The position numbers and the translations under genes were made by a program. Below the pieces are notes generated by a model that saw only the letters and a list, made by a program, of their open reading frames with translations, was not told the DNA's origin and searched no databases. From a virus, in the IMG/VR virus record IMGVR_UViG_3300020536_000010, positions 1 to 64,000 of that record: a DNA stretch of 64,000 nucleotides. The stretch is one strand, 5' to 3'. This document shows, piece by piece, positions 9,472-31,421 of this stretch. Numbering within the stretch: position 1 is the first letter of the stretch; the number at the start of each line of letters is the position of its first letter.

Positions 9472-9480
9472 GAGGATGCA

Positions 9481-10668: not shown

Positions 10669-10692
10669 AATATAATAAAAAGGAAGACAATA

Positions 10693-10908: not shown

Positions 10909-10909
10909 T

Positions 10910-11146
10910 ATGAGTAAGATATCTCCATGGCAACAATGGAAACAAAATTTAGGAGAAACTCGTCCTTGGGACCTTATAAATCCTCAAACTCAATGGGCAA
11001 CAGAAGAGGTCTCAACAAACAGGTTTGATATCTGTAAGTCTTGTCCAGAATTAATTAAGCCAACATCTCAATGTAAAAAATGCGGATGCTTTATGACTGC
11101 AAAAACAAAGCTAGCTTTGGCAACCTGTCCATTAGGTAAATGGTAA
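10910..11146 (+). CDS. small Cys-rich protein (CxxC..CxxCGC..CPxGKW)
   Basis: Paralog of 3531-3728. Confidence 0.8.
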   Translation: MSKISPWQQWKQNLGETRPWDLINPQTQWATEEVSTNRFDICKSCPELIKPTSQCKKCGCFMTAKTKLALATCPLGKW

Positions 11147-14628: not shown

Positions 14629-17016
14629 ATGGCAACAGTCGTAAAAGACTTTAAGGTAAAAAATGGTCTGATTGTTGAAGGAACTACTGGTACCATCAAC
14701 AATTTTGATATTTTAACAAAAAGCTCTGCAGACCAAACATATATTACAAATTTGGTTGGTGGAACAGGAACAGCACTTAACACACCAGACACACTCGTAA
14801 AGCGGGATGGCTCTGGTAATTTTGCTGCTGGAACAATTACAGCAAATCTTACTGGTAACGTAACTGGTACAGTATCTGATATTTCAAACCACGATACAGA
14901 TGACCTAGACGAAGGAACAACAAACAAGTACTTTACTGATTCTCGTGCTAAGACATCAGCAGCTGAGTTGCTTACGGGTGCAACACTAACAAACATTACT
15001 ATTACTGGTACTGGATCTGGTCTTACAATTACAGCAGAAAATGGTGTAGATGACTCTACAACAGACGACCTTGATGAAGGCACAACAAACCTTTATTATA
15101 CAAACCAGAGAGTTGATGACTACATCAATGCATCTATTGACACTGATGACATTTCTGAGGGTGCTACAAACAAGTACTTTACAGAGGGACGAGTTCACGA
15201 TGCTCTATCTGCTGGAGATGGTCTAGACTATAACTCCACAACTGGTGAATTCTCTGCAGATCTTGGATACGGTCTACAGTTTGATGGCTCTGGACAGATT
15301 GAGGTTGATGGCTCAGTAATTGCAACTGACCAAAATCTATCTGACGCAATTGATGCTCACAACGTATCTTCTGGAGTTCACGGAGTAACTGGAGATGTTG
15401 TTGGTACAACAGATTCTCAGACTCTGTCAAACAAGACTCTCGGATCTAACCTAGATGCTGGAACACACAGAATTACAAACCTTAGCGACCCATCAAGCTC
15501 ATCTGATGCAGCTACCAAGGCATATGTTGATTCATATGCTGAGGGTCTTCACATTCACGCATCAGCAGTTGCTGCTACCACAACAAACATTAGCATAGCT
15601 AATGACCTTATGGTTGGAGACACTATTGACGGCGTTAATCTTGCATCTGGAAACCGTGTCCTTGTAAAGAACCAGACCAATGCTGCAGAAAATGGTATTT
15701 ATGAAGTTCAGCCATCTGGATCTGCTCTTCGTGCAGCAGACTTTGATGCTCCAGCTGAAGTAAACGGTGGTGACTTTATCTTCGTAACTGGAGGTAACGC
15801 TAACGACAACACTGGTTGGGTACAGACATCTACAGGCGTAGTTACAATTGGAACTGACCCAATTACCTTTACTCAGTTCTCTGGTGCTGGCACATACCTT
15901 GCTGGAAATGGTCTAGACCTTAATGGCAACACATTTGAAATTGATGAAACCGTTGTTGCTACTAGAACATGGGTTGGGGAAGAGCTTGATGCACACGTAG
16001 ATCTAGAAAGCGGTGTGCACGGTGTAACTGGTGATGTTGTCGGTACAAGCGACACTCAGACTCTTACCAATAAGACTCTTGGTTCTGGAACAGTGCTTGG
16101 TGCAAATCTTGATGCAACCAACACATACAAGGTTACAAACCTTGTAGACCCAACATCCAACCAGGATGCAGCAACCAAGAAGTATGTTGATGATGAAGTT
16201 TCTGATGTTGCTGGAGACCTAACTACACACCAGAATGCTACAACTGGTATTCACGGTGTAACTGGAAACATTGTAGGAACCTCCGACAGCCAGACACTAA
16301 CAAACAAGACAATTGATGGATCTAGCAATACACTTTCAAACATTGCAAATGCATCTCTTGTAAATGATTCTGTTACAGTAAATGGCAATGAGGTTGAGCT
16401 TGGCTCAAGCATCACGCTTGACACTGACGATGTTGCAGAGGGCACTACAAATAAGTACTTCACTGACAACCGTGCCAAGGATGCAGCAGGATATTTGCTA
16501 GAAAATGCATCACAGACAAATATTGCAATCGTTTATGATGAAGTAAACCGCACATTGTCTGTTACAGCAGAGAATGGTGTTGCAGATTCAGACACTGACG
16601 ATCTAGCTGAAGGCACAAGCAACCTTTACTTTACTGATCAGAGGGCAATTGATGCTCTAGAGGGAGTTACACCAAACTTCCCAGCAGTGGAGATTGATTC
16701 TGTTGCAAAGCAGGTAGCTGCAGAAGCTTCTGTCCCAACTGCAAGCACAAGCACTGCAGTTTCATGGGCTAAGGCAGACTACAGATCAGCTGAATTCCTA
16801 GTAAAATTTGCTAGTGGATCTCACACAGAAATTGCAAAGGTACTTCTAACAATGGACACTTCTGACAACATTGCTATTACAGAATATGCAATTGTCGGAA
16901 CCAACGGAGACCTTGGCTCAATTTCTGCAGATGTAAATGGAAATGATGTAAGACTACGTGTTACAACTGTAAACAACAACTCAACAGTTGCTGTGGTTGG
17001 AACACTACTAAAGTAA
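14629..17016 (+). CDS. long repetitive fibre protein
   Basis: 5x TDD(L/I/V).EG..N.Y(F/Y)T, 3x HGVTG..VGT.D.QTL.NKT, RVLVKNQT module. Confidence 0.8.
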   Translation: MATVVKDFKVKNGLIVEGTTGTINNFDILTKSSADQTYITNLVGGTGTALNTPDTLVKRDGSGNFAAGTITANLTGNVTGTVSDISNHDTDDLDEGTTNKYFTDSRAKTSAAELLTGATLTNITITGTGSGLTITAENGVDDSTTDDLDEGTTNLYYTNQRVDDYINASIDTDDISEGATNKYFTEGRVHDALSAGDGLDYNSTTGEFSADLGYGLQFDGSGQIEVDGSVIATDQNLSDAIDAHNVSSGVHGVTGDVVGTTDSQTLSNKTLGSNLDAGTHRITNLSDPSSSSDAATKAYVDSYAEGLHIHASAVAATTTNISIANDLMVGDTIDGVNLASGNRVLVKNQTNAAENGIYEVQPSGSALRAADFDAPAEVNGGDFIFVTGGNANDNTGWVQTSTGVVTIGTDPITFTQFSGAGTYLAGNGLDLNGNTFEIDETVVATRTWVGEELDAHVDLESGVHGVTGDVVGTSDTQTLTNKTLGSGTVLGANLDATNTYKVTNLVDPTSNQDAATKKYVDDEVSDVAGDLTTHQNATTGIHGVTGNIVGTSDSQTLTNKTIDGSSNTLSNIANASLVNDSVTVNGNEVELGSSITLDTDDVAEGTTNKYFTDNRAKDAAGYLLENASQTNIAIVYDEVNRTLSVTAENGVADSDTDDLAEGTSNLYFTDQRAIDALEGVTPNFPAVEIDSVAKQVAAEASVPTASTSTAVSWAKADYRSAEFLVKFASGSHTEIAKVLLTMDTSDNIAITEYAIVGTNGDLGSISADVNGNDVRLRVTTVNNNSTVAVVGTLLK

Positions 17017-17049
17017 AATAAAATATAGATAACAGGAGAGTGGTAGATC

Positions 17050-17505
17050 TTGGCTACAACAGATAAAGACTTTAAGGTCAAAAATGGCTTGCAGGTTGCA
17101 AGTGGAGGTTCGTTTGGTGGTGCAGTAACAGTTGGCACACCAAGCCTAGCTGACCATGCTGTAACTAAGTCTTATGTTGATGCTCTAATTGGCGGTATGC
17201 CAGTTGGATCTACCCCTCCTGTTTCTCCAGATAATGGAGACATGTGGTTTGATACGCTAACAGAAAGAGTTAACGTATACTATGGCGGTACATGGTTAAC
17301 CATAGCAGTAATTGATGACACCCTGAATATTCCACAACACATTCACGATACATCAATTGACGGAAATGGCTTAATCGTAACTACTTTTACAAGTGGTGGA
17401 AGCTTTAATGATCCACAGGGAGCACCAGTAGATGGTGGTGGACCAGACACAACTGTTTGGACACTAACACTTGATGGTGGAAGTCCTGTAGATAACTTTA
17501 ACTAA
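17050..17505 (+). CDS. fibre connector protein
   Basis: N-terminal KDFKVKNGL as in 14629; NGDMWFDT; C-terminal DGG motifs. Confidence 0.65.
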   Translation: MATTDKDFKVKNGLQVASGGSFGGAVTVGTPSLADHAVTKSYVDALIGGMPVGSTPPVSPDNGDMWFDTLTERVNVYYGGTWLTIAVIDDTLNIPQHIHDTSIDGNGLIVTTFTSGGSFNDPQGAPVDGGGPDTTVWTLTLDGGSPVDNFN

Positions 17506-17558
17506 AATAGCGGTATAATAAAAGAGTATGGGCAGAACCCATTAGGAGAAAAGTATAA

Positions 17559-19556
17559 ATGGCAACTAGAATGCAGCAACGCAGAGGAACTGCGGCACAA
17601 TGGACAGCAGCAGACCCAGTATTGGGTGCTGGTGAAATAGGTTTTGAAACTGACACTGGTAAATTTAAGATGGGTGATGGCACTAGCTCATGGACTGAGC
17701 TGTACTACTTCCTAGACTCAAATGACCTTGACCTAGGCGGAAGCCTTGATGATTATGTTCCTCTAACCCAGAAGGGTGCTAACAATGGTGTTGCCACACT
17801 TGACTCTGCTGGAAAAGTTCCTCTTACTCAGCTAGGAAATATCATTGACGGTGCTCCAGAGGCACTAAATACTCTTAATGAGCTTGCTGCAGCAATCTCA
17901 GACGATCCTGACTTCTATACTAATATTACTGACATAACCTCAGATATTGCTGATTTAAACACATCTTATGGAGACCTGTTTACTTCTGTAGGTATCGTAT
18001 CATCTGCTGTCAGTGATCTCACAACAGATTTGGGTACAGCAGAAACAAATATTACAACATTAACAAATGACCTAAATACTTTAGAAACTACTGTATCTGG
18101 GGTTCAAGGCTCTTTAGCAACAGCAGAAACAGATATTGATAATCTTCAATCAGAGGTTTCTGGTCTAGAGACAACCGTAGGCAATCTAGAAACAGAAAAG
18201 GCTCCAACGGCTAGTCCAACGTTTAGTGGAACGGTAGTTCTTCCATCAACAACATCTATTGGCGATGTTAGCAATACAGAGATTTCTTATCTTAACGGAG
18301 TTACCTCTGATATTCAGACACAGTTAGATGGAAAGCTTGCTTCTTCTACAGCCTCTTCAACCTATGCCCCACTTTCTGGGCCAACTTTTACTGGAACAGT
18401 AACCCTTCCATCTACAACAAGCATTGGCTCTGTATCTGACACAGAGCTTGGATACTTGAATGGCGTTACATCAGATATTCAGACACAGCTTAATGCTAAG
18501 GCACCAACGGCTGATCCAACCTTTACAGGAACTGTTTCTGGTGTTACAGCAACACATGTCGGACTTGGCAACGTAGACAATACGTCTGATGCCAACAAGC
18601 CAGTTTCTACAGCTACTCAGACTGCTTTAGATGCAAAGCTAAGCCTTTCTGGTGGCACAATGACTGGTGCACTGACTCTGTCTGGTGCACCTACAGAGGC
18701 TAATCACGCTGCAACTAAAGCTTATGCAGACTCTATCTCTGAAGGTCTTCACGTTCACCCATCTTGTGTTGCTGCAACTACAGCAAATGTTAACCTATCA
18801 AATGCTCTTGAAAACGGAGACGTTCTTGATGGAGTCACCCTTGTAACTGGCGATCGTGTTCTGGTTAAAAACCAAACAACAGCTAGCGAAAATGGTATTT
18901 ATATTGTTCAGGCTTCTGGAGCTGCCCTACGGGCCTCTGATTTCAATGAGCCACTAGAAGTTGATGGCGGAGACTTTGTTTTCGTAACAGGCGGTACTGT
19001 TAATGACAATACTGGATGGGTTCAGACAGCTACTAACGTAGTTACTATTGGCACTGACCCAATTACTTTTGTTCAGTTTGCTGGAGCTGGAACTATTACA
19101 GCTGGAACTAACGTAAGCGTAAATGGCTCAGAGATTTCTGTTGTAAACAACCCAACATTTTCTGGACTCGTTACAGCAGCAGCTGCTGGTGTTGCGTTCT
19201 CTGACGGAACTCAGACAAAAGAAGGTGTTCCATCACGTACAGCTATAACACAGGTTACTGCAGCATATAACTTGTCTACTGGTGGCCTTTCACTTAGAGA
19301 TGGACTTGTTGAAGTATCTCACACTGGTGGTTCTGCAGTTGCAGTTACAATTCCAGCAGATTCTACTACAAACTTCCCAATTGGTACATCAATAGATGTT
19401 CTAAGAACAAATACTGGTGGTGTATCGATTGCTGGTGCTGCTGGCGTAACAGTTAATGCAACACCAGGCCTAAACCTCCGTGCTCAGTGGTCTTCTGTAA
19501 CTCTCTTTAAGAGAGCTGCAAATACCTGGGTAGCATTCGGAGACCTTGCATCTTAA
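17559..19556 (+). CDS. fibre protein with Mtd-N-like start, coiled coil and FPIG...GDL C-terminal domain
   Basis: QQRRGTAAQW...GEIGFETDTGKFKMGDG; heptad region; RVLVKNQT module. Confidence 0.8.
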   Translation: MATRMQQRRGTAAQWTAADPVLGAGEIGFETDTGKFKMGDGTSSWTELYYFLDSNDLDLGGSLDDYVPLTQKGANNGVATLDSAGKVPLTQLGNIIDGAPEALNTLNELAAAISDDPDFYTNITDITSDIADLNTSYGDLFTSVGIVSSAVSDLTTDLGTAETNITTLTNDLNTLETTVSGVQGSLATAETDIDNLQSEVSGLETTVGNLETEKAPTASPTFSGTVVLPSTTSIGDVSNTEISYLNGVTSDIQTQLDGKLASSTASSTYAPLSGPTFTGTVTLPSTTSIGSVSDTELGYLNGVTSDIQTQLNAKAPTADPTFTGTVSGVTATHVGLGNVDNTSDANKPVSTATQTALDAKLSLSGGTMTGALTLSGAPTEANHAATKAYADSISEGLHVHPSCVAATTANVNLSNALENGDVLDGVTLVTGDRVLVKNQTTASENGIYIVQASGAALRASDFNEPLEVDGGDFVFVTGGTVNDNTGWVQTATNVVTIGTDPITFVQFAGAGTITAGTNVSVNGSEISVVNNPTFSGLVTAAAAGVAFSDGTQTKEGVPSRTAITQVTAAYNLSTGGLSLRDGLVEVSHTGGSAVAVTIPADSTTNFPIGTSIDVLRTNTGGVSIAGAAGVTVNATPGLNLRAQWSSVTLFKRAANTWVAFGDLAS

Positions 19557-19576: not shown

Positions 19577-20401
19577 ATGGCAGTAGGAAAAAGACCTGGT
19601 AGAAGGTCACAGGCATCAAACGACTTTCTAGAGCCAAAGGCACCAACAAGCGTATCTGCTACTAACGTTGGAACTGGGAGGGCATTTAATGATGGTGCTG
19701 CCACAGTTACTTTTTCTTTACCTGGTGATTCTCCAGCAGCTACTTCTTATACAGTAACAGCTACTGCTTCTGGTCAAACAACCAGGACTGCTAGCGGAGC
19801 TACATCACCATTAACAGTAACAGGTCTTGTTGGTGGAGTAACCTATACAGTTAGCGTTACTGCAACTAATAATGCTGGAACATCTGCCGCTTCTTCTTCA
19901 ACCACTGTTGCCATTACTACAGTACCAGGAGCACCAGCTGCCCCGTCAGTTGCTTCAACTGTTATAAATCAAGACTCTATTTCTTGGTCTGCACCAAACA
20001 CTGGTGGAAGTGCAATTACTGGATACCGTTGGGAAAGTAGCGACAATAAGTCAAACAACGTTGCTTCTAACGTTACATCCGCTACAGTAACACAAGAAGG
20101 TGGAACTTCTCAGACATATAAGGTTCGTGCAAGCAATGCTAATGGAGACGGTGCATTTTCTCCTAATTCATCTAGCGTTACTACGTTTAGTCCTTTCTTC
20201 CCGCCATTCTTCCCATTCTTCCCGCCATTCTTCCCGCCGTTTTTCCCATTCTTCCCATTCTTTCCACCATTCTTCCCATTCTTCCCATTCTTCCCATTCT
20301 TCCCACCATATTTCCCATCGTTTGGACCATTTTTCCCACCATTCTTCCCACCATTCTTCCCAAGCTTCCCAGGTGGAGCTGGAGGGTCTAAGTTCTTCTA
20401 A
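19577..20401 (+). CDS. two-FN3 protein with long C-terminal Pro-Phe repeat
   Basis: APTSVSA..YTVTAT..TVTGL..YTVSVTATN; SWSAP..GGSAITGY; about 60-aa PPFFP tail. Confidence 0.8.
   Translation: MAVGKRPGRRSQASNDFLEPKAPTSVSATNVGTGRAFNDGAATVTFSLPGDSPAATSYTVTATASGQTTRTASGATSPLTVTGLVGGVTYTVSVTATNNAGTSAASSSTTVAITTVPGAPAAPSVASTVINQDSISWSAPNTGGSAITGYRWESSDNKSNNVASNVTSATVTQEGGTSQTYKVRASNANGDGAFSPNSSSVTTFSPFFPPFFPFFPPFFPPFFPFFPFFPPFFPFFPFFPFFPPYFPSFGPFFPPFFPPFFPSFPGGAGGSKFF
20186..20373 (+). repeat. Pro-Phe coding repeat 3
   Basis: (CCA)1-2 TTC TTC units encoding PFFPPFFPFFPP... Confidence 0.9.
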
Positions 20402-20417
20402 GATAAGATAATAAAAC

Positions 20418-20446
20418 AAAGCCCAGAGATGTCGTCTCTGGGCTTT
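20418..20446 (+). terminator. intrinsic terminator
   Basis: AAAGCCCAGAGA-tgtcg-TCTCTGGGCTTT. Confidence 0.8.
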
Positions 20447-20462
20447 GTGCTATAATTTAGTT

Positions 20463-21200
20463 ATGACAAATAATTGGCTAACAAAAGATAGATCAGAAAC
20501 AGATTCAAATAGAATGCCAGAAAGATTTACACAGGCTGGAATTTTAGTTACTAATCCAGCATTGGGCATTAATATATACAACCAGGCAATCGATGAAAAA
20601 ACTTGTGACTATATTATTGAAACTTTAGAAAATAACCTTAATGGGCAAACAAAATATTCTTGGCAGGGTGCAAAAGTAACTGAGGCAGACACTGTTCTTG
20701 AAGAGGCTCGAAAGTGCTTAGATTTTAAAGTAAGTTCAAATAATCTTGGGCCAAGAGATAACCATAATTCAAGCCTATATGACATGCACGAAATTGCTTT
20801 TCGTTCAATAAAGCCAAACGTTGATGACTATGGAATGTATTGGGGTGTTGGGGTAAATTTTTTTGAAGCATTTAATTTTGTCAAATATGATGGACCAGGA
20901 ACACACTTCAAGATTCATGCTGATCATGGACCAGCATATGTTACAACCGTATCTGTAGTGGCATATGTTAATGATGACTATGAAGGCGGAGAGCTTTACT
21001 TTCCACGGTTTAATCTAAAGCTAAAGCCAAAAAGGGGAGATGTCATGGTTTTCCCATCAACATATATTTATGAGCATGCATCTAACGATATGATTAACGG
21101 AACAAAGTATTCTATCGTAATTATGACTGACTACAATAATCGTGGTGGATTAAGAAACTTTAACTACCGTCAAGAAGATATGAATAAAATATATTATTAG
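20463..21200 (+). CDS. 2OG-Fe(II) oxygenase (P4H-like) 1 of array
   Basis: HAD, YVNDDYEGGELYFP, H, KYS; leaderless TGCTATAAT. Confidence 0.9.
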   Translation: MTNNWLTKDRSETDSNRMPERFTQAGILVTNPALGINIYNQAIDEKTCDYIIETLENNLNGQTKYSWQGAKVTEADTVLEEARKCLDFKVSSNNLGPRDNHNSSLYDMHEIAFRSIKPNVDDYGMYWGVGVNFFEAFNFVKYDGPGTHFKIHADHGPAYVTTVSVVAYVNDDYEGGELYFPRFNLKLKPKRGDVMVFPSTYIYEHASNDMINGTKYSIVIMTDYNNRGGLRNFNYRQEDMNKIYY

Positions 21201-21207
21201 GAAAATT

Positions 21208-21912
21208 ATGAGTGCACAAGAAGATTTACAAAAAAGAATAGAAGATTTTTATAAAATTGATGAAATTACTTGGTCATCAATAGATGATCTAGGAAGCGGA
21301 ATTTTTTTATTTAGGAATGTCCTGCCAACCTCAATGAACATTATTGAAAGGCTAGAGTCAGTTTTGCAAGACCCCTCTAATCAATATAAATATGCAGAAG
21401 CAATGGTTGGCTATGGAATGAAAATCCCAGAATATAGAGATTGCTATGATTTTAAGTATAAAAAGACTGACATTCAACACGACAAAAGTGAAGCATCTAT
21501 AAAGCTTCAACAGCTATGGGATGAGGTTTATTTTAGGCAGTTGCAAGCAGTAAAATACTATTGCAAGGTTCACAATATTGGAGAGCTTAGATATTGGGAG
21601 GCAATGAATTATGTAAAGTATGGTCCAGGACAGCACTTTCAAGAGCATTCAGACAATGGGTTTTCTTATAACTGTGTAGTTTCTTTGGTAGCATATCCAA
21701 ATGATGATTATGAAGGCGGAGAGCTATTTTTTAGGCTCCAAAACTTAAATATTAAACCAAAGGCTGGAGACTTATTTGTATTTCCTTCAAACTTTATGTA
21801 TCCACATAGAGCTATGCCAGTTACTAGTGGGACAAAGTATTCTATAGTTACAATGCTAGATTATTCGGACAAATATCATAGACCAGATTTTTATCAGGAG
21901 ACTGGGAATTAA
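21208..21912 (+). CDS. 2OG-Fe(II) oxygenase 2 of array
   Basis: HSD, YPNDDYEGGE, HRA, KYS. Confidence 0.9.
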   Translation: MSAQEDLQKRIEDFYKIDEITWSSIDDLGSGIFLFRNVLPTSMNIIERLESVLQDPSNQYKYAEAMVGYGMKIPEYRDCYDFKYKKTDIQHDKSEASIKLQQLWDEVYFRQLQAVKYYCKVHNIGELRYWEAMNYVKYGPGQHFQEHSDNGFSYNCVVSLVAYPNDDYEGGELFFRLQNLNIKPKAGDLFVFPSNFMYPHRAMPVTSGTKYSIVTMLDYSDKYHRPDFYQETGN

Positions 21913-22631
21913 TGGCTAAAGTTTTTGTATATACCTCTGGTCAGATGGCAAAAATAGACCAATTGCCACTGCATCGTGATTGGATGGACACTACGTTTGA
22001 TAGACATGCCTATCACTGTTTTCCAGTATCATTATCTAATAGGCTAGGTTGGGGAATTTCATTTCCAGAAGATATAACTTTTATTTGGGATGGCATAAAT
22101 GATTCAACTGGAGATCATGTTAAAATATTATCTGGTTCTAAATACGCTCATCCAAATCGTGGCAATAGAACGATTAGCTTTTACACAGATATCACATTTT
22201 TTGAAGAAAATGGTAAAAATATAACTCTTTTGACAATGCCAGTGCCAAATCAATTTATCAGGGGTGCTCAATGTATGACAACCCTATTGAGCACATCTGT
22301 GCTTGCTAGTGATCTGCCAATTGCCTGGATGATAACAGAACCAAATATAGAAATAACAATTCCAGCTAATACTCCAGTAGCAGCAGTTTTGCCAGTATCA
22401 TTAGCAGATATTCAATCACATGAGATAGAAGTTCGTAATGGCAGGCCACCATATGAAGACAATGAGTGGAATAATAAAATGCGTGATCGTGGTATTGTAA
22501 GTCAAGAAAAAAATTCAAGAGGGGAGTGGACACATTTTTATAGGGATGCTATTGATCACAATGGAGATCCTATTGGACATCACGAAGCAAAAAAGATAGT
22601 TATGAAGGTTACAAATAATGCCAAAAATTAA
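21912..22631 (+). CDS. DUF6065-like (dUTPase-like fold) protein
   Basis: HAYHCFPVSLSNRLGW...IPANTPVAAVLPV. Confidence 0.55.
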   Translation: MAKVFVYTSGQMAKIDQLPLHRDWMDTTFDRHAYHCFPVSLSNRLGWGISFPEDITFIWDGINDSTGDHVKILSGSKYAHPNRGNRTISFYTDITFFEENGKNITLLTMPVPNQFIRGAQCMTTLLSTSVLASDLPIAWMITEPNIEITIPANTPVAAVLPVSLADIQSHEIEVRNGRPPYEDNEWNNKMRDRGIVSQEKNSRGEWTHFYRDAIDHNGDPIGHHEAKKIVMKVTNNAKN

Positions 22632-23343
22632 ATTTATAACAAATAGGCCATGGCTTTCTGAAAAAGACCCATCTGCCCCAGAACCAGTTTCTAAAAGTCT
22701 TCCAGATTGGTATAAAAATGCAGATAGATATGCAAAAATGTCTAATGGACAGCATTTGATTGGCCCAGATAAAGGAAAAATTCCAACATGGAAGGCATGT
22801 CCAGCCTTATACGATATATTTGTAACTGGGTATACTTATAAAACCCCATGCGATATTGAGTTTTATCTTAATGATAATGATGAAATTTCTGTAAGAGTTT
22901 CTAATCAAAAGTACCATGATTTTGTTCATTTAAGACCACCAATGCAGCAATTTGAGCATCCAAAAGGATATTATAAAAAGCATTTTGCCTGGTGGCCAGA
23001 CTGGGCGGTAGCAGTTCCAGATGGATATAGTGTATTATATTCTCAACCATTTGGAAGATATGATTTGCCATTTCTTACAACTAGCGGTATTGTAGATAAT
23101 GACAAGGTAAACTTGCCAGGAACTTTTCCATTTTTTATTCAAGAAGGATGGACTGGAGTCTTACCAGCAGGAACTGCATACGCACAAATGATTCCATTTA
23201 AAAGAGAAGACTGGGAATCAGAATATGAAATTAGTACATCTGAGACTATAATGAAAAAGAATTTTGAAAATGTCAAAAAATATAGGGTTCCAAATGGTGG
23301 AGTATACTTAAATGAGGTCTGGGAGAGAAGAAAATATGAATAG
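22618..23343 (+). CDS. DUF6065-related (dUTPase-like fold) protein
   Basis: LPDWYK..TWKACPA..GY..SGIVDND..PAGTAYAQMIPFKRE. Confidence 0.55.
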   Translation: MPKIKFITNRPWLSEKDPSAPEPVSKSLPDWYKNADRYAKMSNGQHLIGPDKGKIPTWKACPALYDIFVTGYTYKTPCDIEFYLNDNDEISVRVSNQKYHDFVHLRPPMQQFEHPKGYYKKHFAWWPDWAVAVPDGYSVLYSQPFGRYDLPFLTTSGIVDNDKVNLPGTFPFFIQEGWTGVLPAGTAYAQMIPFKREDWESEYEISTSETIMKKNFENVKKYRVPNGGVYLNEVWERRKYE

Positions 23344-23358
23344 AAATAGGAGTTGTTT

Positions 23359-24027
23359 ATGGAAAATTTAGCAAATAATAGTGTGGTTGACAGAGTCTCT
23401 ATAACTCCGTCTGGATTTTTTGGATCTTCCTCAGAAAATATTGTAACATTAGAAGATTTTATGACTGAATATGAAATAACTAGATTAAATGATTTCATAA
23501 GGTCTAATGAAAATTGGGATATAACTGAAACTCACTATAATGAAAATGGAACGGTTATTTATGATTCTGGATATTGGGCTAATCGTGTAGCGACTTATCC
23601 AACAATTCAAAAAACAAACCCAGAAATACCTGAAATTATAGAAGGCATGGTTGCAAGATTAAAGATTGAAGTAGACAAGTTTTTTGGTGTAGATGCTTTG
23701 CCAACTAGCCCAGCCATGGTTAGATGGCTTCCTGGCCAATTTCAAATGCCGCATGCAGATAAAGAATTGCACACTGGTCCAGACGCTGGAAAGCCCAATG
23801 ATTTTCCATACTATGACATTGCTGGACTTTTTTATGTTAATGATGACTATGAGGGGGGAGAGCTATACTTTCCAAACCAAGGAATTCAGTTTAAACCTAA
23901 AAGGGGAGCTGCCTACTTCTTCCCAGGAGATATGAACTATATACATGGTGTAACAGAGATAAAGTCTGGAATCAGGTATACAGTTCCATTCTTTTGGACG
24001 ATACTATCTCATAAGGGCAATTCTTAG
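23359..24027 (+). CDS. 2OG-Fe(II) oxygenase 3 of array
   Basis: HAD, YVNDDYEGGE, HGV, RYT. Confidence 0.9.
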   Translation: MENLANNSVVDRVSITPSGFFGSSSENIVTLEDFMTEYEITRLNDFIRSNENWDITETHYNENGTVIYDSGYWANRVATYPTIQKTNPEIPEIIEGMVARLKIEVDKFFGVDALPTSPAMVRWLPGQFQMPHADKELHTGPDAGKPNDFPYYDIAGLFYVNDDYEGGELYFPNQGIQFKPKRGAAYFFPGDMNYIHGVTEIKSGIRYTVPFFWTILSHKGNS

Positions 24028-24059
24028 GCTATGGTATAATCTTAATTGGAGAGTGGTTT

Positions 24060-24818
24060 ATGGCAAATTTAAACAATATGAATAGGTTAACTGACGACAT
24101 TGTTATCTATGAAAATTTTATATCATCAGAAGAGTGTTCTAAAATTATTAAGCTTTTAGATAAGGTGGCAGAAAAAGGCACTATGACTTGGATGCCAATA
24201 TCTTTTTATGAGTCGTATTCTTCAGTTTTGCCACAAGACGATGATCCAGAAATTGAAGAAGAGGGGTTGCCAGGCAATATATTTTCTAGCATTAAAGATG
24301 GGTTTATTCAGGCTGTGGCATCCGTACATAGCATAGATCCAAAAACTGTTGTGCAAATTGGGTATCACACTCAAAAGTGGGAGCCAGGGGCATATGCAAG
24401 AATACACTCAGACAATACAGATGAACATGGAAATACTGGCCCATTTGCAAGAAGTAGATATGCCGCATTTCTTTATTTAAACGATGATTTTTCTGGAGGA
24501 CTATTAAAATTTCCAAAGCAAAATATAGAGATTTCTCCAAAAGTGGGAATGTTGGCTGCTTTTGACGGGGGCTTTAACAATATGCACGAAGTTACACTAA
24601 TTGAGTCTGGAATCAGATATACAATAGGATCTTTTTGGGATGACCGTGAGGAAGATGCATATCCACAAGAAGTTAGAGATGCCTGGGCAGATGAAATGAA
24701 ACAGATTAGAGAAAAGCAAGAAATCGAAAGAAAAGAATGGCAAGATTTGCTTAAAGACGGGTATAAAATAGATATGGATGGCAATAAATATAAGGTGGGG
24801 CAAGACGACAATGATTAA
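24060..24818 (+). CDS. 2OG-Fe(II) oxygenase 4 of array
   Basis: HSD, YLNDDFSGG, HEV, RYT. Confidence 0.9.
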   Translation: MANLNNMNRLTDDIVIYENFISSEECSKIIKLLDKVAEKGTMTWMPISFYESYSSVLPQDDDPEIEEEGLPGNIFSSIKDGFIQAVASVHSIDPKTVVQIGYHTQKWEPGAYARIHSDNTDEHGNTGPFARSRYAAFLYLNDDFSGGLLKFPKQNIEISPKVGMLAAFDGGFNNMHEVTLIESGIRYTIGSFWDDREEDAYPQEVRDAWADEMKQIREKQEIERKEWQDLLKDGYKIDMDGNKYKVGQDDND

Positions 24819-25470
24819 TCAGCTAAAAGAAATTTTAAAGAAAAATAATATATCATTTGAAGAAATTACGGATGAGCTAGTATCTATTGAAAATTTTTTA
24901 ACAGATAATGACTTAGAGTTTCTTTTTAATCAAATAAATTCCGCTTCACAGGAAGATTGGGAAGTGGAATATTTAGCTAACCTAAAAAGCTTTTGTTTAG
25001 AAAAATTTGGTAGAGATGATGTAGAAAATCTTGTGGCTGAAGGAAAGTTTGAAATAACACAAAATTGGTCTGACAAAAATCTAAATGTAAGTGAACACCC
25101 AGAATATCGTATTTTTTATAAAAGGCTTGCCTCTCTTGTAACAGAAGCAGACGAAACACTGATGCTTAGTGGTCTTGCTACAATACAAAGAATGCAGCCA
25201 GGGGTAGAGCTAAAATCACATACAGATCAGCATACAGATCCATCAATACGTTATGCTGCAATTATTTATATTAATGATGATTATGAAAATGGTGAGCTGT
25301 TCTTTAGAAATCTTGGAATAAAGCTTAAGCCAAAACCAAAAACTCTTCTTATTTTTCCAGGAAATGAGCAATATGAGCACGGGGTTGACTTTGTTTCAGA
25401 AGGTCCAATAAGATATGTCTTAGTCGGATTTATTAAGGAAAAGGGTTTTTACGAAAGGAATAAATTCTAA
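24811..25470 (+). CDS. 2OG-Fe(II) oxygenase 5 of array
   Basis: HTD, YINDDYENGE, HGV, RYV. Confidence 0.9.
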   Translation: MINQLKEILKKNNISFEEITDELVSIENFLTDNDLEFLFNQINSASQEDWEVEYLANLKSFCLEKFGRDDVENLVAEGKFEITQNWSDKNLNVSEHPEYRIFYKRLASLVTEADETLMLSGLATIQRMQPGVELKSHTDQHTDPSIRYAAIIYINDDYENGELFFRNLGIKLKPKPKTLLIFPGNEQYEHGVDFVSEGPIRYVLVGFIKEKGFYERNKF

Positions 25471-25471
25471 A

Positions 25472-26176
25472 ATGAAAAAAAATATTTTAAATGATATGGT
25501 TTATTATTATGAGGATGCCGTTTTAAACTTTGACAAAGTTATGGAAACGATTAAAGAGCTAGACATAATTGGCCCATCCGATGCCGTTCCTTTATGGCAA
25601 GACTGGACTTCATCAAATGATAAAACATTTATATATGGACAAACCCAAACATTTGATATTAATCAAATTAATAAAATGGATGAGCCATATAAGAGTAAAT
25701 TAGCATTTATATATAACAACATCATGGAATCGTTCTACGAAGTCTCAAAAGATTATGCAAATTCTATAGGAGATTTAGATGAGCCAAGACTTTTCCCAGT
25801 ATTTAATATTAAAAAGTATAATACTGGTTCTGCAATGGGTGCACACTATGACCAATTAGATGGGGATAAAACATTGCGGTATTCTTTGGTGATGTATCTT
25901 AATGATGATTGTGATGGTGGAGAAATTTCATTTAAGCTATCTGAATATGAAGATCACAATAAAGTTGCAAGTCCAGACTTAGATTATGCTGTTGCTGTAG
26001 AAAAAAATCAAATAGATTTTGGGGTAAAGCCAAGTGCTGGAAGTATTATAATTTTCCCATCTTCTGCACCATATTATCATATTGCTCACACAGTAAAATC
26101 TGGTTTTAAATATATGGTTCCAAGTCACTGGATTCATAATGATATGAGTATGAGAGATGGCAGAAACAGCATATAA
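25472..26176 (+). CDS. 2OG-Fe(II) oxygenase 6 of array
   Basis: HYD, YLNDDCDGGE, HIA, KYM. Confidence 0.9.
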   Translation: MKKNILNDMVYYYEDAVLNFDKVMETIKELDIIGPSDAVPLWQDWTSSNDKTFIYGQTQTFDINQINKMDEPYKSKLAFIYNNIMESFYEVSKDYANSIGDLDEPRLFPVFNIKKYNTGSAMGAHYDQLDGDKTLRYSLVMYLNDDCDGGEISFKLSEYEDHNKVASPDLDYAVAVEKNQIDFGVKPSAGSIIIFPSSAPYYHIAHTVKSGFKYMVPSHWIHNDMSMRDGRNSI

Positions 26177-27017
26177 TTTTGATATTGAAAAAATACAAGA
26201 TACGGTATGGGTTTTTAAAAAAGCAATTAAAAATCCAGAATCTTTTATAAAATATTTTGAAGAAAATAAAAAATGGAAAGATTGGTATACTCTTGGTAGG
26301 TCAGCCAATGGCACTCTTTTTTCAACAAGTTTTGATACATTTCCAACAGAAGAAGAGTGGAAAAGGAAAAAGCATGAATCACCACATAATGACTTTAAAA
26401 GCCCAGGCTATTATGAAAATAAAATTAATGATTTATTTTATAATACCACAAGGCTATATGTTGAAGAAAACAATTTAGTATTTGATAACTGGATTTATAA
26501 TGGTTGGGGTATAGCAAAGTATATCCCAGATCCACAGGATAATACAGAATATGCTATGTTTCATCATACAGACTTTCAAAGAGAATTGGCCTATAATCCT
26601 GGATCTAAGTTTGCCATTACTGTTGTTTTTTATCTTAATGACAACTATGATGGCGGAGACGTAATGTTTAGGTTTTTAGATGATAATGATATGTCAATAA
26701 TTAAAGAAGACTATTCTTATAAGCCACAGGCTGGAGATATTGTTGTTTTTATGTCTGGCCATCCACATTATCATGGAGTAAAAAAAGTCAGCAATGGCGA
26801 AAAATATATTATAAGAGCATATTGGAAATATGACTATCTTGGACATCCACTTTGGTTAAAATTGCAAGAAAAATATGGAGAAGATGTTTGGAGACAATTA
26901 GAAAAAGAGCGATTAAGATTTAGTAGAAATACAGATAATATAAAAATGATTAATAATGTTCAGTTTTGGATAGAGTTCGAAGAATATTATAAAAAAGAAC
27001 TGGGATCTTTGGATTAA
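26157..27017 (+). CDS. 2OG-Fe(II) oxygenase 7 of array
   Basis: HTD, YLNDNYDGGD, HGV, KYI. Confidence 0.9.
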   Translation: MAETAYNFDIEKIQDTVWVFKKAIKNPESFIKYFEENKKWKDWYTLGRSANGTLFSTSFDTFPTEEEWKRKKHESPHNDFKSPGYYENKINDLFYNTTRLYVEENNLVFDNWIYNGWGIAKYIPDPQDNTEYAMFHHTDFQRELAYNPGSKFAITVVFYLNDNYDGGDVMFRFLDDNDMSIIKEDYSYKPQAGDIVVFMSGHPHYHGVKKVSNGEKYIIRAYWKYDYLGHPLWLKLQEKYGEDVWRQLEKERLRFSRNTDNIKMINNVQFWIEFEEYYKKELGSLD

Positions 27018-27685
27018 TGAAAACAGCAATAGTTACTGGTGCAAGCAAAGGCGTAGGTTATGCGACTGTAAAGCTTTTATCGGAAAATGGATATAGGGTT
27101 ATAGCTGTTTCAAGAGACCTATCCAAGATTTCTAATCTGGAATCTGGCAATGTTGAAATATACAAATTAGACATAACAAGAAAAGACGAAATACTGGCAT
27201 TTGCTGAGAAGTATAAAAATATTTCTCTAGATCTTCTTGTTAACAATGCAGGTGGTGGTTCTGGACCAACCAAAATTATTAATGAAACAATGGAAAATTT
27301 TAGAATAGCATATGATATTAATGTTGCTGGGCCAATGTATTTATCCCAACTTTTTGTTCCCTGCCTTCAAAAATCAGAGTCTCCAACAATAATCTTTGTG
27401 ACATCTTTGTCTGGCAAGATTCCATATAGGAATGGCGGTAATTATACTAACGCAAAAAGAGGAGAAATGGCATTAGTTGATACAATGAGGATGGAGTTTC
27501 CAGAATATGGGATTAAGATTACAGAAATATGTCCTGGCACCATAGATACCCAAATTGAGAAAAAGAATCATGCCTTAACTGCAGAAGATATGGCAGAGGC
27601 TATTCGCTGGGTAGCCTCATTGCCAAAACATTTTAATGTAAATCATCTAGAAGTTAGCCATATTTTAAATAGTAAGTATATGTAG
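27017..27685 (+). CDS. short-chain dehydrogenase/reductase (YdfG-like)
   Basis: TGASKGVG, NNAG, YTNAK (YxxxK), ICPG. Confidence 0.9.
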   Translation: MKTAIVTGASKGVGYATVKLLSENGYRVIAVSRDLSKISNLESGNVEIYKLDITRKDEILAFAEKYKNISLDLLVNNAGGGSGPTKIINETMENFRIAYDINVAGPMYLSQLFVPCLQKSESPTIIFVTSLSGKIPYRNGGNYTNAKRGEMALVDTMRMEFPEYGIKITEICPGTIDTQIEKKNHALTAEDMAEAIRWVASLPKHFNVNHLEVSHILNSKYM

Positions 27686-27716: not shown

Positions 27717-30700
27717 ATGTCTACTCCATCTAGTTTGTATGCCGAAAAAATTTTTTCTGAGCATCCAATAGCGTTCTGGCCCCTTGACGACAAGGCAGAT
27801 TATGTGTCGCTTATATCCGAAACAAATAGAGATTTGCGTTTATGGGATACAGACAACGGAACTGTCGAAAACATTACTTCTATATTAGACGAACCATTTT
27901 CAGATAGTTTTGTGTCTAGAGTTTCGGCATCATCAGCAACTGGAGATAATTTTTTTGTTTCTGCAGTTAGCCCAAATTTAATAAATTTTAATGTTTTAAA
28001 TGAAGATCTTTCTACTTTTGCTATAGGTGCATTTGTTTATACTAGCAGCTCTTATATTTCTGGATTTGAAATTGGATATCAATATTTTGATGAATCTAGC
28101 GGAGAGTTGGTAGAAAAAACAAAATTTTATTCAACTGAAATAGTTAATAATTGGATTTTTATTTCAGAAACATTCAATATGCCAACAGACAATGTTTCAG
28201 CTAGGCTAGTAATTAAGGCTAAATTTTTTAATGGCGATAGTCTTTCAAACTATAAATTTTTAGTTAATGGTATATCTTTTGGACAATGGTCTGAAGAGTT
28301 CAATGCCTCATCTTTAGGAATTACTCCAGTAGAATTGCCATCAAACATATTCAATGCTGAAAATATTTTTGGAATTGAGGCAAAAGCCTATGGGTTGCAG
28401 GACCTTGACGGCTATTATTTAGTTAGAAAAAATGCATTATCTGCTAAAAATTCTGGAATCCCCATGGTTTTTGGGGCCTCAAATAGTACTATAATTCAAC
28501 AAAGTGGTGGAGCAATTCCATCATTAATAATTCCTGGTCAAGGATTTTTAAATAATTCTGGCAAATATAAGGATTACACTTTTGAGTTTTGGACTAGAAT
28601 TAATTGTAACTCAGTAGTAGAAAAAAGAATTTTTGGAAATATACGTGGAACAGATGGAGTTTATGTTCAGGGATCAACAATAATACTAAAGGTTGGAGAT
28701 TACCTAATTAGGCACTATGTTGGAGAATGGTATAGGCCAATGCTAATTCAGATTAGGTATTCTACATCTTCGATTAGTTTATTTATTAATGGAGAACAGG
28801 TAGGTGAAACACTTATAAATGTTGATAATGTAGATTTCCCAGAAAAAAACCAAACAGCAGGAAGCATCATTTTAGATAATGATTGGCTAGGATTTTGGTC
28901 ATATGACGATGTGGCCCCAATCGAGATTGATGGCATAGCTATTTATGGATATAGGGTTCCACTTCAGGTAGCTAAAAGAAGATTTGTTTATGGCCAAGGG
29001 GTTGAGTTTCCAGAAAATATTAATAATGCTTATAGTGGAAGTTCCGTCTTTATTGACTATCCATTTTCTAAGTATGCCAAAAACTATCAATATCCATCAT
29101 TAGGGAAGTGGGTTCAGGGTGCCTATGACAACTTGGCTATTAATGGAAATGCGATTGAATTTCCACAATACTCTGCCCCAGAAGCGAAGTTTAGCAATAA
29201 AACAAGCTCTGAGTGGATTATAGATTTGGAAAATGCACAAAATGAAATTAATGATAACTTTATTAAGTTTAGGCCAAATAGTAGTTGGGATTCAACCAAT
29301 GGCCAGCTATTTTTTGAAAATTTTAATTTAGCTAATGAGCAGCTAAAAGCTTTTTATATTATTTGTAAAGAGATTTCAACGCCAACTACAGAACAAACGC
29401 TGATTGCAATTGAGAATAGGGCAACTGGAAATGTTTTCGAAATAACCCTAGACAGTGATAGCATTAACTATAAGTTGTGGGAAAATGGAAACTATTCATT
29501 ATTATTATCAAAATCTAGACAATACTTAAATGGTGTTGGGGAAAAAGCAGTTATTGGAATAGATCTCCAAAAATTCTCCAGCTACTACGGTGAAAAGATC
29601 GCAGACTTTTTTGGAAAACTAACCACAATGTCTATTTACGTTGGCTCAACTAAAAATTTATCAAATACATTTTTAGGTAATATATATGAAATTGGTTTTT
29701 GTTCATTAAAGAATTTATCTAAAATTTCTTCTATTTTTGCTGCCGATGGCCTAAGCTTTGCTGACACATTCATTGACGGCTCTGAGCTATATACAAATAC
29801 GGCAGATGCTGGAGAAGACGTTCAAGAGTCTGCTATTTTTCAATTCTTATATGACGGTGGAACTCTTGGCCAATACTCATATTCTATTTTAGAAAATCAC
29901 ATACCTAGCTACGGAGTAATTGCAGGAGAAGATTTATCTGGATTTGGGATATTGGTTGAGGCAGACTCATCTTGGCAAGATCAAATCCCTCTATCATTTT
30001 TTGCTAAAGAAACTACTGATTCACGTGGAGACTCAAGGCTTGATCTAGATTTTATCCAATTTAATATTAATTATCCAGCACCATCTATTTTTGTTCAGGA
30101 AACAGAAGAGGGTTCGTGGACATATGCAGAGCTACAGTCTGAATATGCCAATCCAATACAAAGAACCTATGATTCTTTAGATAATCAGCTTTTTACTGGT
30201 TTTCAAAATTATGAAGATTTAAAAAATAAATCTGTAAGCACCTATAAATACGACACCCTAAATTCTATAGTAAAAACATACATAACATTTCAATTGCTTG
30301 AAAATGGGGCTAATAGATCACTATCTACATTTACAAATACAGAGCTTGCACCTAAAAATGGAATTGTTGTACCTGGGTCAAACTGGATAAACACAAAGTA
30401 TGAGGTTGTTGATAATATGATAATTTATCCACCCCAGTCAATTTCCTTTAATAATCTTGCTATTGTTACTCATATTGAAATATCTTCTAGAAATATTAAA
30501 AATACTCCAATTTCTATTAAGTCCCTAGAGTATGCATCCATGGCACTTTCTGACACCATGCCAACATCCATTGGGACTAGATTTGGTAATGACATTTATC
30601 CATATAGAAAAGAAGGGTTCTATCTTACATATAAAAAACAAAATCCATTCTCTATTTATAAGGGAAGCACTCCCTATTTATATTTAACTAGAAATAGTGG

Positions 30701-31421
30701 AATAACCATAAGGGGCGGATATGACCCATTGATAAATAGGGGTATTTCCATACCACTAAATAATTCAAAATCAGATAATTTTAAAGTTATAGCAATGCAA
30801 ATGGCATTAAGGTTTGACGAAGACTTTTTTCCATATGGGGCAATGCAGCTTTTCGAGATTCAGAGTAAAAACTCTTACATTCGTGTATATGCTGCTGCAA
30901 GTGATCCATCTGGAAAACGTGCAAAACTATACGCTATTAATTCTAGGGGAGAGTTAGAAAATGGAATAGCGTTTTACCTAAATGGAAAAATTGTAAAGGA
31001 TCCAGTTTTAACCATAAAGGAGTGGGCAATGCTTGGTATAAGATTTGCAAATATTCAAGAATTTTCTAATTTTGCTGGGGCACTTAGGCTAACCGCACCA
31101 CTGACATATAATAATATTTCTTATTACAAATCAACTAATCTTCAAGAGGTTCAAAATGAGATTACAAGGCCTTGGTTTAAGGTTAAAAACCTTGGCTCAT
31201 TAACTCTAGATTGGGGCTTCTGGCCATCATATCTTTGGGATGGCGTTTTGTTTATAGCAAAAACTAGCTATTATGGAGTAGACCCATCAGACATATATAA
31301 GATATATACAGGAACAAATAAAATAATTATTGATGATGAAATAGAGTCTGTGTTTGGAGATTACCAATATTCAGTCAAAGAAAACATAGAGTGGCGTTCT
31401 CAGGTATACCAGGCAGTATAA
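27717..31421 (+). CDS. large virion protein with LamG/concanavalin-like segments
   Basis: PIAFWPLDD; TFEFW...LFINGEQV...IDGIAIY. Confidence 0.6.
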   Translation: MSTPSSLYAEKIFSEHPIAFWPLDDKADYVSLISETNRDLRLWDTDNGTVENITSILDEPFSDSFVSRVSASSATGDNFFVSAVSPNLINFNVLNEDLSTFAIGAFVYTSSSYISGFEIGYQYFDESSGELVEKTKFYSTEIVNNWIFISETFNMPTDNVSARLVIKAKFFNGDSLSNYKFLVNGISFGQWSEEFNASSLGITPVELPSNIFNAENIFGIEAKAYGLQDLDGYYLVRKNALSAKNSGIPMVFGASNSTIIQQSGGAIPSLIIPGQGFLNNSGKYKDYTFEFWTRINCNSVVEKRIFGNIRGTDGVYVQGSTIILKVGDYLIRHYVGEWYRPMLIQIRYSTSSISLFINGEQVGETLINVDNVDFPEKNQTAGSIILDNDWLGFWSYDDVAPIEIDGIAIYGYRVPLQVAKRRFVYGQGVEFPENINNAYSGSSVFIDYPFSKYAKNYQYPSLGKWVQGAYDNLAINGNAIEFPQYSAPEAKFSNKTSSEWIIDLENAQNEINDNFIKFRPNSSWDSTNGQLFFENFNLANEQLKAFYIICKEISTPTTEQTLIAIENRATGNVFEITLDSDSINYKLWENGNYSLLLSKSRQYLNGVGEKAVIGIDLQKFSSYYGEKIADFFGKLTTMSIYVGSTKNLSNTFLGNIYEIGFCSLKNLSKISSIFAADGLSFADTFIDGSELYTNTADAGEDVQESAIFQFLYDGGTLGQYSYSILENHIPSYGVIAGEDLSGFGILVEADSSWQDQIPLSFFAKETTDSRGDSRLDLDFIQFNINYPAPSIFVQETEEGSWTYAELQSEYANPIQRTYDSLDNQLFTGFQNYEDLKNKSVSTYKYDTLNSIVKTYITFQLLENGANRSLSTFTNTELAPKNGIVVPGSNWINTKYEVVDNMIIYPPQSISFNNLAIVTHIEISSRNIKNTPISIKSLEYASMALSDTMPTSIGTRFGNDIYPYRKEGFYLTYKKQNPFSIYKGSTPYLYLTRNSGITIRGGYDPLINRGISIPLNNSKSDNFKVIAMQMALRFDEDFFPYGAMQLFEIQSKNSYIRVYAAASDPSGKRAKLYAINSRGELENGIAFYLNGKIVKDPVLTIKEWAMLGIRFANIQEFSNFAGALRLTAPLTYNNISYYKSTNLQEVQNEITRPWFKVKNLGSLTLDWGFWPSYLWDGVLFIAKTSYYGVDPSDIYKIYTGTNKIIIDDEIESVFGDYQYSVKENIEWRSQVYQAV

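Follow-up and report, generated by a model that had tools for sequence, protein, structure and literature searches.

Prolyl-hydroxylase-type oxygenases behind a Pro/Phe-tailed fibre-associated gene in a freshwater phage: a candidate protein-modification array

The first 64 kb of the 79-kb IMG/VR virus record IMGVR_UViG_3300020536_000010 (64,000 nucleotides, hereafter the window; the record is about 70% complete, and its complete relatives measure about 111 to 113 kb) carry a gene for an FN3 protein ending in a tract made almost only of Pro and Phe (the PF gene, 19577-20401) and, directly behind it, an array of seven Fe(II)/2-oxoglutarate (2OG) oxygenase genes, two DUF6065 genes, and a short-chain dehydrogenase/reductase (SDR) gene (20463-27685). 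We propose, with a probability of roughly 0.4, that the array enzymes work in the cytoplasm, where they hydroxylate fibre-associated proteins of the phage itself, and that the PF tracts rank first among the candidate substrates. Gene content, catalytic motifs, conserved synteny, and the DUF6065 fold are established directly, whereas the protein nature of the substrate, the PF tract as that substrate, the residue modified, and the roles of the DUF6065 and SDR proteins are what we infer.

Within the virion block of the window, the PF gene comes after three fibre-like genes (14629-19556) and is followed by the enzyme array. The PF gene and the array are on the plus strand, as are the genes at 1539-2135, 6368-7087, 9481-10668, 10841-11146, 11140-11742, and 17559-19556. 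The PF gene encodes 274 amino acids, laid out as a conserved N-terminal peptide of about 25 residues, two FN3 domains (PF00041, E value of 1.4e-12; predicted local distance difference test, pLDDT, above 90 in the AlphaFold 2, AF2, model), a 60-residue Pro/Phe tract, and the end GGAGGSKFF. An earlier note on this DNA, made from the letters alone, had described an FN3 protein with an end of about 60 residues of almost pure Pro and Phe, and residues 206 to 265 indeed comprise 31 Phe, 25 Pro, 2 Ser, 1 Tyr, and 1 Gly. The coding tract of PFF and PPFF units covers 20192-20368, and the DNA under it forms an imperfect tandem repeat (20195-20371) with periods of 9, 12, and 21. AF2 gives the tract a pLDDT of 50 to 58 and no secondary structure and, since it is predicted to be extended and unstructured, the tract is probably accessible.

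The gene upstream of the PF gene (17559-19556) encodes a tail-fibre-like protein of 665 amino acids with an Mtd_N N terminus (Pfam, 2.6e-14) and matches to PHROG tail-fibre families. Its C-terminal domain is shared with the product of 8809-9471 (30 to 46% identity in relatives), and each of the two genes lies 5' of a gene for a PF protein, which suggests docking of each PF protein on the fibre whose gene lies immediately upstream. The second PF protein (9481-10668) is composed of a PASTA domain, a PF tract (9730-9780), two FN3 domains, a further PF tract (10336-10410), and a Cys-rich tail, its tracts serving as linkers between folded domains. Such a use, together with the unstructured AF2 model of the first tract, would fit an extended, exposed spacer. 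A search for PF tails among longer proteins returned none, a result that low-complexity filtering renders uninformative.

The seven oxygenases of the array are encoded at 20463-21200 (oxygenase 1), 21208-21912 (oxygenase 2), 23353-24027 (oxygenase 3), 24060-24818 (oxygenase 4), 24778-25470 (oxygenase 5), 25472-26176 (oxygenase 6, with an insert in the beta-helix), and 26157-27017 (oxygenase 7, with a C-terminal extension). They score 31.6 to 55.9 bits against PF13640, whose gathering cut-off is 27, and the triad H158, D160, and H211 (numbering of the first sequence) is invariant in eight aligned paralogues, so that the seven oxygenases with intact HxD...H triads announced in the earlier note are borne out. 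The basic residue located ten positions after the distal His, which is the contact for the C5 carboxylate of 2OG, is Lys in oxygenases 1, 2, 6, and 7 and Arg in oxygenases 3, 4, and 5, as well as in oxygenase 0, a PF13640 member encoded outside the array (11140-11742) that has the best Pfam score (60.3 bits). In a Protein Data Bank (PDB) search, the solved structures closest to the array enzymes were peptidyl prolyl and lysyl hydroxylases. In particular, oxygenase 2 matches the prolyl 4-hydroxylase of Bacillus anthracis at 2.5e-5, although over 70 core residues only and with lysyl hydroxylases, LH3 being among the best PDB matches, scoring nearly alike. NCBIfam yielded only weak PRK05467 (YbiX-type) matches, far under the cut-off. 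The complex prediction for oxygenase 1 with residues 196 to 274 of the PF tail gave no answer (score of 0.00) and is evidence neither way.

The array is closed, here and in many relatives, by a classical SDR (27017-27685; PF00106, 2.9e-38) with the TGxxxGxG and YxxxK motifs. The spacing between genes in the cluster ranges from -41 to +32 nucleotides (nt), so that the tight packing of the oxygenases with an SDR and two DUF6065-like genes was likewise described correctly.

The two DUF6065 genes, DUF6065a (21912-22631; PF19541, 1.3e-22) and DUF6065b (22618-23343; phrog_7084, no Pfam match), both members of the conserved core, encode distant paralogues with a common W..C-P motif, and a hidden Markov model (HMM) of a-type sequences only finds b-type members at 1e-7 to 4e-5. 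As judged from its AF2 model (pLDDT of 82.6), DUF6065a has a dUTPase fold: the top 15 rows of the VIA-align search are all dUTPases or dUTPase-derived viral proteins, with Z scores of 9.7 to 7.2, unrelated folds appear from a Z of about 3 to 4, and Foldseek gives E values of 0.008 to 0.05. No sequence similarity between DUF6065a and dUTPases was detected, the identity in the structural alignments being 6 to 12%. Residue C36 of DUF6065a is invariant in 26 sequences. A Protein Atlas query with DUF6065a returned its own family only, and we found no paper on DUF6065 under that name.

For comparison, we fetched 80 IMG/VR loci encoding a homologue of the FN3 protein (designated below by L-numbers). 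Almost throughout these loci, the gene order is fibre, small protein, fibre, FN3-PF, oxygenase 1, oxygenase 2, DUF6065a, DUF6065b, and oxygenase 3. The FN3 homologues end, in 80 cases out of 80, in a Pro- and aromatic-rich (or Phe-Gly) tail, the units of which differ among relatives (PFF/PPFF, PHF, PxFC, PFGFT, and AFG), as does the length, from about 30 to 190 residues; despite these length changes, the P/F reading frame of the tract is kept in all relatives. Wherever the downstream DNA suffices, at least two oxygenases and two DUF6065 genes stand behind the tail. The array comprises 5 to 10 oxygenases in the PFF clades; in L047 and the PFGFT clade it is reduced to two, accompanied by two DUF6065 genes, a minimum that identifies these four genes as the conserved core. 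Oxygenases 1 and 2 belong to it, the latter being the most conserved member, and oxygenase 3 is part of the core in most relatives, with oxygenases 4 to 7 forming the variable part. The position of the core behind the PF gene is held across relatives with 40 to 90% protein identity. The relation between repeat type and array size is suggestive and inseparable from phylogeny.

Behind the tract, three endings occur among the relatives: little, a Cys-rich knot, or a domain of 160 amino acids resembling Hint domains and bacterial inteins. In a profile search of the PDB, the latter matched the KlbA intein at 5e-6 and a bacterial intein-like (BIL) domain at 8.8e-6, with Pfam giving only sub-threshold Hint and intein matches. 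Six of the aligned sequences (L011:10811-11296, L025:10784-11266, L034:6995-7477, L052:2857-3339, L068:10826-11308, and L075:8336-8848) keep the catalytic Cys, placed directly after the PF tract, and the terminal HN, ending in HN(K), an arrangement which suggests a possible self-cleavage at the C terminus of the tract. The PFGFT clade (L027, L056, and others) retains the 160-residue domain without the Cys and the HN.

Furthermore, some relatives carry a glycosyltransferase of family PF11397 (1.5e-19, 71 bits) either in the interval between the PF gene and the array (L028:8402-9406 and L060:7115-8125) or right after oxygenase 0 (L008:1063-1962 and L076:1357-2310; the gene is directly 3' of oxygenase 0 in L008 and L076 to L078), and a further gene of this type lies at L014:2-748. 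We take PF11397 to be the Pfam model of CAZy family GT60. Characterised GT60 members transfer N-acetylglucosamine (GlcNAc) onto the hydroxyproline of Skp1 after the action of the prolyl hydroxylase PhyA, or onto Thr of trypanosome mucins (PMC6939170). A PDB search with the GT60-like protein found no relative, and the 79-kb record, about 70% complete as stated above, contains no PF11397 match. In L075, a sulfotransferase, an Asp/Asn hydroxylase, and a DOT1-like methyltransferase are inserted between the PF gene and oxygenase 1 (8853-10777). The window has a counterpart of this trio in a pair of minus-strand genes (4073-5306), namely, an Asp/Asn beta-hydroxylase-like gene (4073-4684; PF05118, 2.2e-11), 39% identical to the L075 gene sited between the PF gene and the array, and a sulfotransferase-like gene (4644-5306), a weak assignment without a Pfam match of its own, made through 27% identity over 233 amino acids to the Sulfotransfer_2 protein of L075 (tblastn, 2e-15). 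As GT60 enzymes modify polypeptides, the GT60-type companions are the best independent support for a protein hydroxylation followed by decoration.

As for transcription, a terminator-like hairpin with a 15-bp stem including 7 GC pairs lies at the junction between the PF gene and the array (20416-20448), and 37 of 56 distinct relatives have a strong hairpin of unrelated sequence at this place; the PF gene thus appears to close a transcription unit. The putative promoter following it, read from the sequence, is an extended -10-like element, TGcTATAAT (20448-20456), located 6 nt 5' of the ATG at 20463, which makes this ATG a likelier start of oxygenase 1 than the listed TTG at 20445. A TGnTATAAT or TATACT arrangement, 6 to 10 nt before the ATG of the first oxygenase, also occurs in L001, L002, L008, L009, L052, L055, and L068, and we infer a leaderless-type start for this gene. 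A generic promoter scan of the sequence was not above shuffles (39 versus 34.8 +/- 5.9). RNA-library contigs from two studies span the fibre genes as well as the FN3-PF gene, breaking off within the PF repeat, and the array is represented by only a few short low-depth contigs. This is a weak hint of a lower-level reading of the array, since contigs cannot rank expression and repeats break assemblies.

Putting these elements together, one may hypothesize that prolyl-hydroxylase-type Fe(II)/2OG oxygenases would act in the cytoplasm on fibre-associated proteins before assembly, the prime candidate substrates being the 19577-20401 tail and both linkers of 9481-10668. The FN3-PF gene would end the fibre transcription unit behind the hairpin, and a separate promoter would drive the enzymes at a lower level. 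The core would consist of two oxygenases together with a pair of dUTPase-fold DUF6065 proteins; the extra oxygenases and the SDR might add site- or position-specific steps, and in relatives the hydroxyls could then be glycosylated by the GT60-type enzyme or sulfated.

We also considered how far such tracts extend beyond the 80 loci. Across 185,579 prokaryote species, each represented by a single genome, a degenerate PF pattern occurred in 15 places, and in five of these it was a PF tract in an open reading frame (ORF), always on a contig of a metagenome-assembled genome; at least four of them carry genes of this phage family. A pattern of the (FPPY)n type retrieved more than 120 further viral contigs, where (PPYF/PPFF)n tails are borne by other proteins, most of them encoded beside fibre genes. 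In this more distant PPxF group (L097-L176), many of the tailed proteins measure only 75 to 160 amino acids and have a short conserved head, PLGTxIxY..., the repeat, and a near-invariant end, FPPxFK (for instance, at L114:3566-3817, L125:4976-5215, and L149:882-1118). Among the 53 loci of this group with a tract ORF, an oxygenase is present in 42 and a DUF6065 gene in 24, with 24 to 35% identity to those of the window. Moreover, all five whole records with (PPYF/PPFF)n tails (98 to 268 kb, three of them complete) contain 7 to 15 PF13640 genes.

The converse does not hold, since the cyanomyoviruses Syn9, ACG-2014f, S-SCSM1, and Sf-CH11 have 7 to 13 PF13640 genes and no PP[F/Y]F repeat. Thus, the co-occurrence of PF repeats and 2OG arrays, which the earlier note had named as a check, was confirmed in one direction, a tail being always accompanied by oxygenases, and failed in the other. 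Such a one-way association agrees with a substrate dependent on its enzymes, and also with a lineage-specific fibre part lying beside a common accessory block.

These arrays without a tract are one of several observations that weigh against the hydroxylation of the PF tracts. The PF tracts are confined to the phage lineages described here, which makes their co-occurrence with the enzymes inseparable from common ancestry. The conserved hairpin and the new promoter split the PF gene from the enzymes, and the caveat of the earlier note, that a terminator and a promoter part the proposed substrate from the array, proved well founded. Within the family, the second PF protein and oxygenase 0 assort independently (L005 and L009 versus L059 and L064). 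The known substrates of prolyl 4-hydroxylases, X-Pro-Gly, Pro-Ala-Pro-Lys, and Ser-Pro4, are unlike PFF/PPFF. The fold of DUF6065 is that of a nucleotide enzyme, and a halovirus homologue adjoins a thymidylate synthase gene. Finally, both the Syn9 array and the oxygenases of S-SCSM1 adjoin fibre genes, so that the adjacency may stem from a hot spot at the fibre end, or from a link with fibres in general, rather than from the PF tracts. In S-SCSM1 (L219, 211949-219702), which has no PF tracts, two tail-collar-type fibre genes are bordered by five 2OG oxygenase genes.

The alternative that fares best, although we consider it unlikely, takes up the latter point: the fibre end would be a hot spot of accessory genes, and the oxygenases would act on host targets or on metabolism, being placed beside the PF gene merely because it ends the fibre block. 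Translation factors and ribosomal proteins are examples of host targets, as in the case of the bacterial EF-Tu and eukaryotic uS12 prolyl hydroxylases. The hairpin and the separate promoter would be expected under such a view, as would the highly variable size and content of the array, with 2 to 10 oxygenases, and the shifting of genes of the post-translational modification type among three sites in the family; in the cyanomyoviruses without PF tracts, many of the PF13640 genes are scattered through the genome. For cyanophage oxygenases, a role in 2OG drawdown and nitrogen status has been proposed (Sullivan et al. 2010, PMC3037559). However, two oxygenases and two DUF6065 genes keep their place behind the PF gene, also in the PPxF group, and the GT60, sulfotransferase, and Asp/Asn hydroxylase companions indicate a multi-step decoration of one polymer rather than the drawdown of a metabolite.

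We regard as rather improbable that the enzymes modify other virion proteins only, i.e., the long fibres or the collagen-like protein encoded at 6368-7087 (PF01391, 9.4e-9), whose 14 G-X-Y triplets with Pro and Lys make it an alternative substrate, and that the PF tracts are unmodified, hydrophobic, polyproline-like linkers. The nearest solved relatives of the oxygenases act on collagen-type Pro and Lys, the collagen-like gene belongs to the same structural block, and the tracts of the second PF protein do act as inter-domain linkers. In addition, co-encoded collagen-like and tail-collar proteins were predicted as substrates of bacterial hydroxylase/sulfotransferase operons (Iyer et al. 2010, PMC2938197). 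The collagen-like gene is, however, 13 kb away from the array, whereas the PF gene is its constant neighbour.

A pathway tailoring a small molecule, in which the SDR and the DUF6065 proteins would be further enzymes, as in the proposal made for the Syn9 cluster, appears quite improbable. The neighbourhood of tandem dioxygenases with a dUTPase-fold, conserved-Cys protein is of the Syn9 type, and the array does include an SDR, but Pfam and NCBIfam revealed no halogenase, nonribosomal peptide synthetase, ATP-grasp protein, transporter, or scaffold-forming enzyme in it. Moreover, all its oxygenases are of the PF13640 family, whereas those of Syn9 belong to five different families, and the relatives add a glycosyltransferase of the polypeptide type. 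The suggestion of the earlier note that the product might be a ribosomally synthesized and post-translationally modified peptide (RiPP), or resemble antamanide, found no support and was rejected: Pfam and NCBIfam detected no RiPP protease, cyclase, or leader-recognition gene in the cluster, and the tract, whose length varies between about 30 and 190 residues, is joined to folded FN3 domains and serves as an internal linker in 9481-10668.

A modification of nucleotides or DNA, with DUF6065 binding a pyrimidine nucleotide and the oxygenases hydroxylating the base, is very improbable, because two array oxygenases match Tet_JBP only below threshold (E values of 0.002 to 0.008, 16 to 18 versus 34.9 bits), whereas PF13640 passes; the array belongs to the virion block and is 30 kb away from the genes for replication; and viruses often reuse dUTPase folds non-enzymatically, as in pp71 and ORF10, which are among the structural matches. 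The Z scores of the DUF6065a model against dUTPases and the sub-threshold Tet_JBP matches as such speak for this explanation, as does the context of DUF6065b, which has homologues in 49 records of haloarchaeal tailed viruses: in halovirus HSTV-2 (NC_020159.1), the homologue gp40 (28132-29001) follows directly after the thymidylate synthase and DNA polymerase genes, and the genome has no PF13640 gene. The HSTV-2 context is compatible with a nucleotide-related role, and the missing PF13640 gene counts against the explanation. We know of no PF13640 member that acts on nucleic acids.

The hydroxylation of fibre-associated proteins is therefore retained as the preferred explanation. The earlier proposal that the array tailors the PF tract is partly supported: the prolyl and lysyl hydroxylase relatives, the kept synteny, and the GT60 and other companions favour protein modification, whereas the tract as the substrate is suggested by its neighbourhood. 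Phe hydroxylation, which had been proposed alongside that of Pro, gained no support, the characterised relatives being prolyl and lysyl hydroxylases, and the evidence speaks neither for nor against it.

Other features of the window deserve mention. A small CxxC protein (10841-11146), with a sub-threshold match to DUF6171 (PF19668, E value of 2.7e-5, 24.9 versus 27 bits), precedes oxygenase 0. Its gene overlaps the start of the next oxygenase, which is oxygenase 0 in most relatives and oxygenase 1 in L015 (2693-2941) and L067 (11264-11524), a pairing that makes it look like part of a mobile two-gene unit. A further PF13640 oxygenase is encoded at 1539-2135 (36.5 bits, 9.7e-9). Beyond the array, the virion block continues with a 1,234-amino-acid protein without family match, the portal, the protease, and the major capsid protein. 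The gene for the first of these (27717-31421), occupying the interval between the array and the portal, has neither a Pfam nor a PHROG match and is kept in the relatives at 27 to 61% identity. Very long ORFs are located at 41012-49999 (2,995 amino acids) and 50641-55011 (1,456 amino acids, no Pfam match), and a phage-encoded DNA polymerase III alpha subunit (62035-63999) is cut by the window end. The portal shares 47% identity with its counterparts in 130-kb Streptomyces phages. Taken together, this resemblance, the PASTA domain, and the extended -10-like element, which would give a leaderless mRNA, hint at an actinobacterial host. Near-verbatim copies of the stretch occur in lake and freshwater metagenomes from many studies, and among cultured phages there was no match to the whole stretch (megablast) or to the PF protein and DUF6065a (tblastn).

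That aquatic phages may carry multiple 2OG-Fe(II) oxygenase genes has been on record since 2007 to 2010, and no substrate of theirs was found (PMC3037559, PMC2938197). As the PFF/PPFF repeat is a constant neighbour and is easily synthesised, this old question becomes directly testable by a peptide assay. If hydroxylated, the tract would represent a new kind of prolyl-hydroxylase-type substrate and a new kind of phage virion decoration; if unmodified, an undescribed type of inter-domain linker. More tentatively, and with somewhat lower confidence than we attach to the preferred explanation, one can picture a modification line in the style of the extracellular matrix on the fibres of abundant lake phages, where Pro/Phe (or Pro/Tyr) tails and linkers would be hydroxylated with the help of dUTPase-fold partners, some of them then bearing GlcNAc or sulfate and others being released by Hint domains. 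In that case, the fibre tip might be rigid or sticky in the manner of extensins or mussel-foot proteins, and the large family of phage 2OG oxygenases would have its first substrate. Among the 15 top-ranked matches of a literature search with the motif, we found no paper on PPFF-type repeats in phages.

Several known systems resemble the proposed one. The prolyl 4-hydroxylase of Chlorovirus PBCV-1 reportedly acts on virus-encoded proline-rich repeats, and this enzyme and that of B. anthracis (PDB 5iax, 3itq, and 5hv0) share with the window the combination of a small, soluble enzyme of the prolyl 4-hydroxylase type with Pro-rich repeat proteins. Different from the window, they are single enzymes with (Pro-Ala-Pro-Lys)n or G-P-P substrates, whereas here seven to nine paralogues of predicted activity accompany a Pro-Phe-Phe repeat without Gly, Lys, or Ser. 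The Skp1 pathway of Dictyostelium and Toxoplasma (PhyA and Gnt1/GT60; PMC6939170) offers a likeness in the succession of a cytoplasmic prolyl 4-hydroxylase-type oxygenase and a GT60 enzyme, paired as genes in our relatives. However, it targets one Pro of a regulatory protein rather than a repeat tract, the likeness of the relatives' GT60 genes is at the family level only, and the window record is without PF11397. The bacterial beta-hydroxylase/sulfotransferase operons predicted by Iyer et al. (2010) follow the same logic, namely, the hydroxylation and subsequent decoration of a low-complexity or fibre-type protein encoded alongside, but their predicted substrates are Gly-rich or collar domains instead of Pro/Phe tracts.

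The closest parallel is the dioxygenase array gp41-gp54 of Syn9, described by Iyer, Abhiman, de Souza and Aravind (2010, PMC2938197), for which secondary-metabolite synthesis was proposed. Like the window, it combines tandem dioxygenases with a dUTPase-fold, conserved-Cys protein, gp43, which matches the DUF6065 HMM at 3e-17, and it stands directly after tail-fibre and fibre-assembly genes. Its own features are at least five dioxygenase families, a JmjC/MINA member, two tryptophan halogenases, and no Pro/aromatic repeat anywhere. In the window, Pfam and NCBIfam gave no tryptophan halogenase or JmjC/MINA match in 20445-27685, all oxygenases are PF13640 members, and the gene regularly found upstream of them encodes a PF-tract protein. 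Since Syn9 already displays tandem dioxygenases with gp43 behind fibre genes, this type of neighbourhood is a published one, and what is new here is the PF-tract neighbour and the make-up of the array from PF13640 oxygenases throughout.

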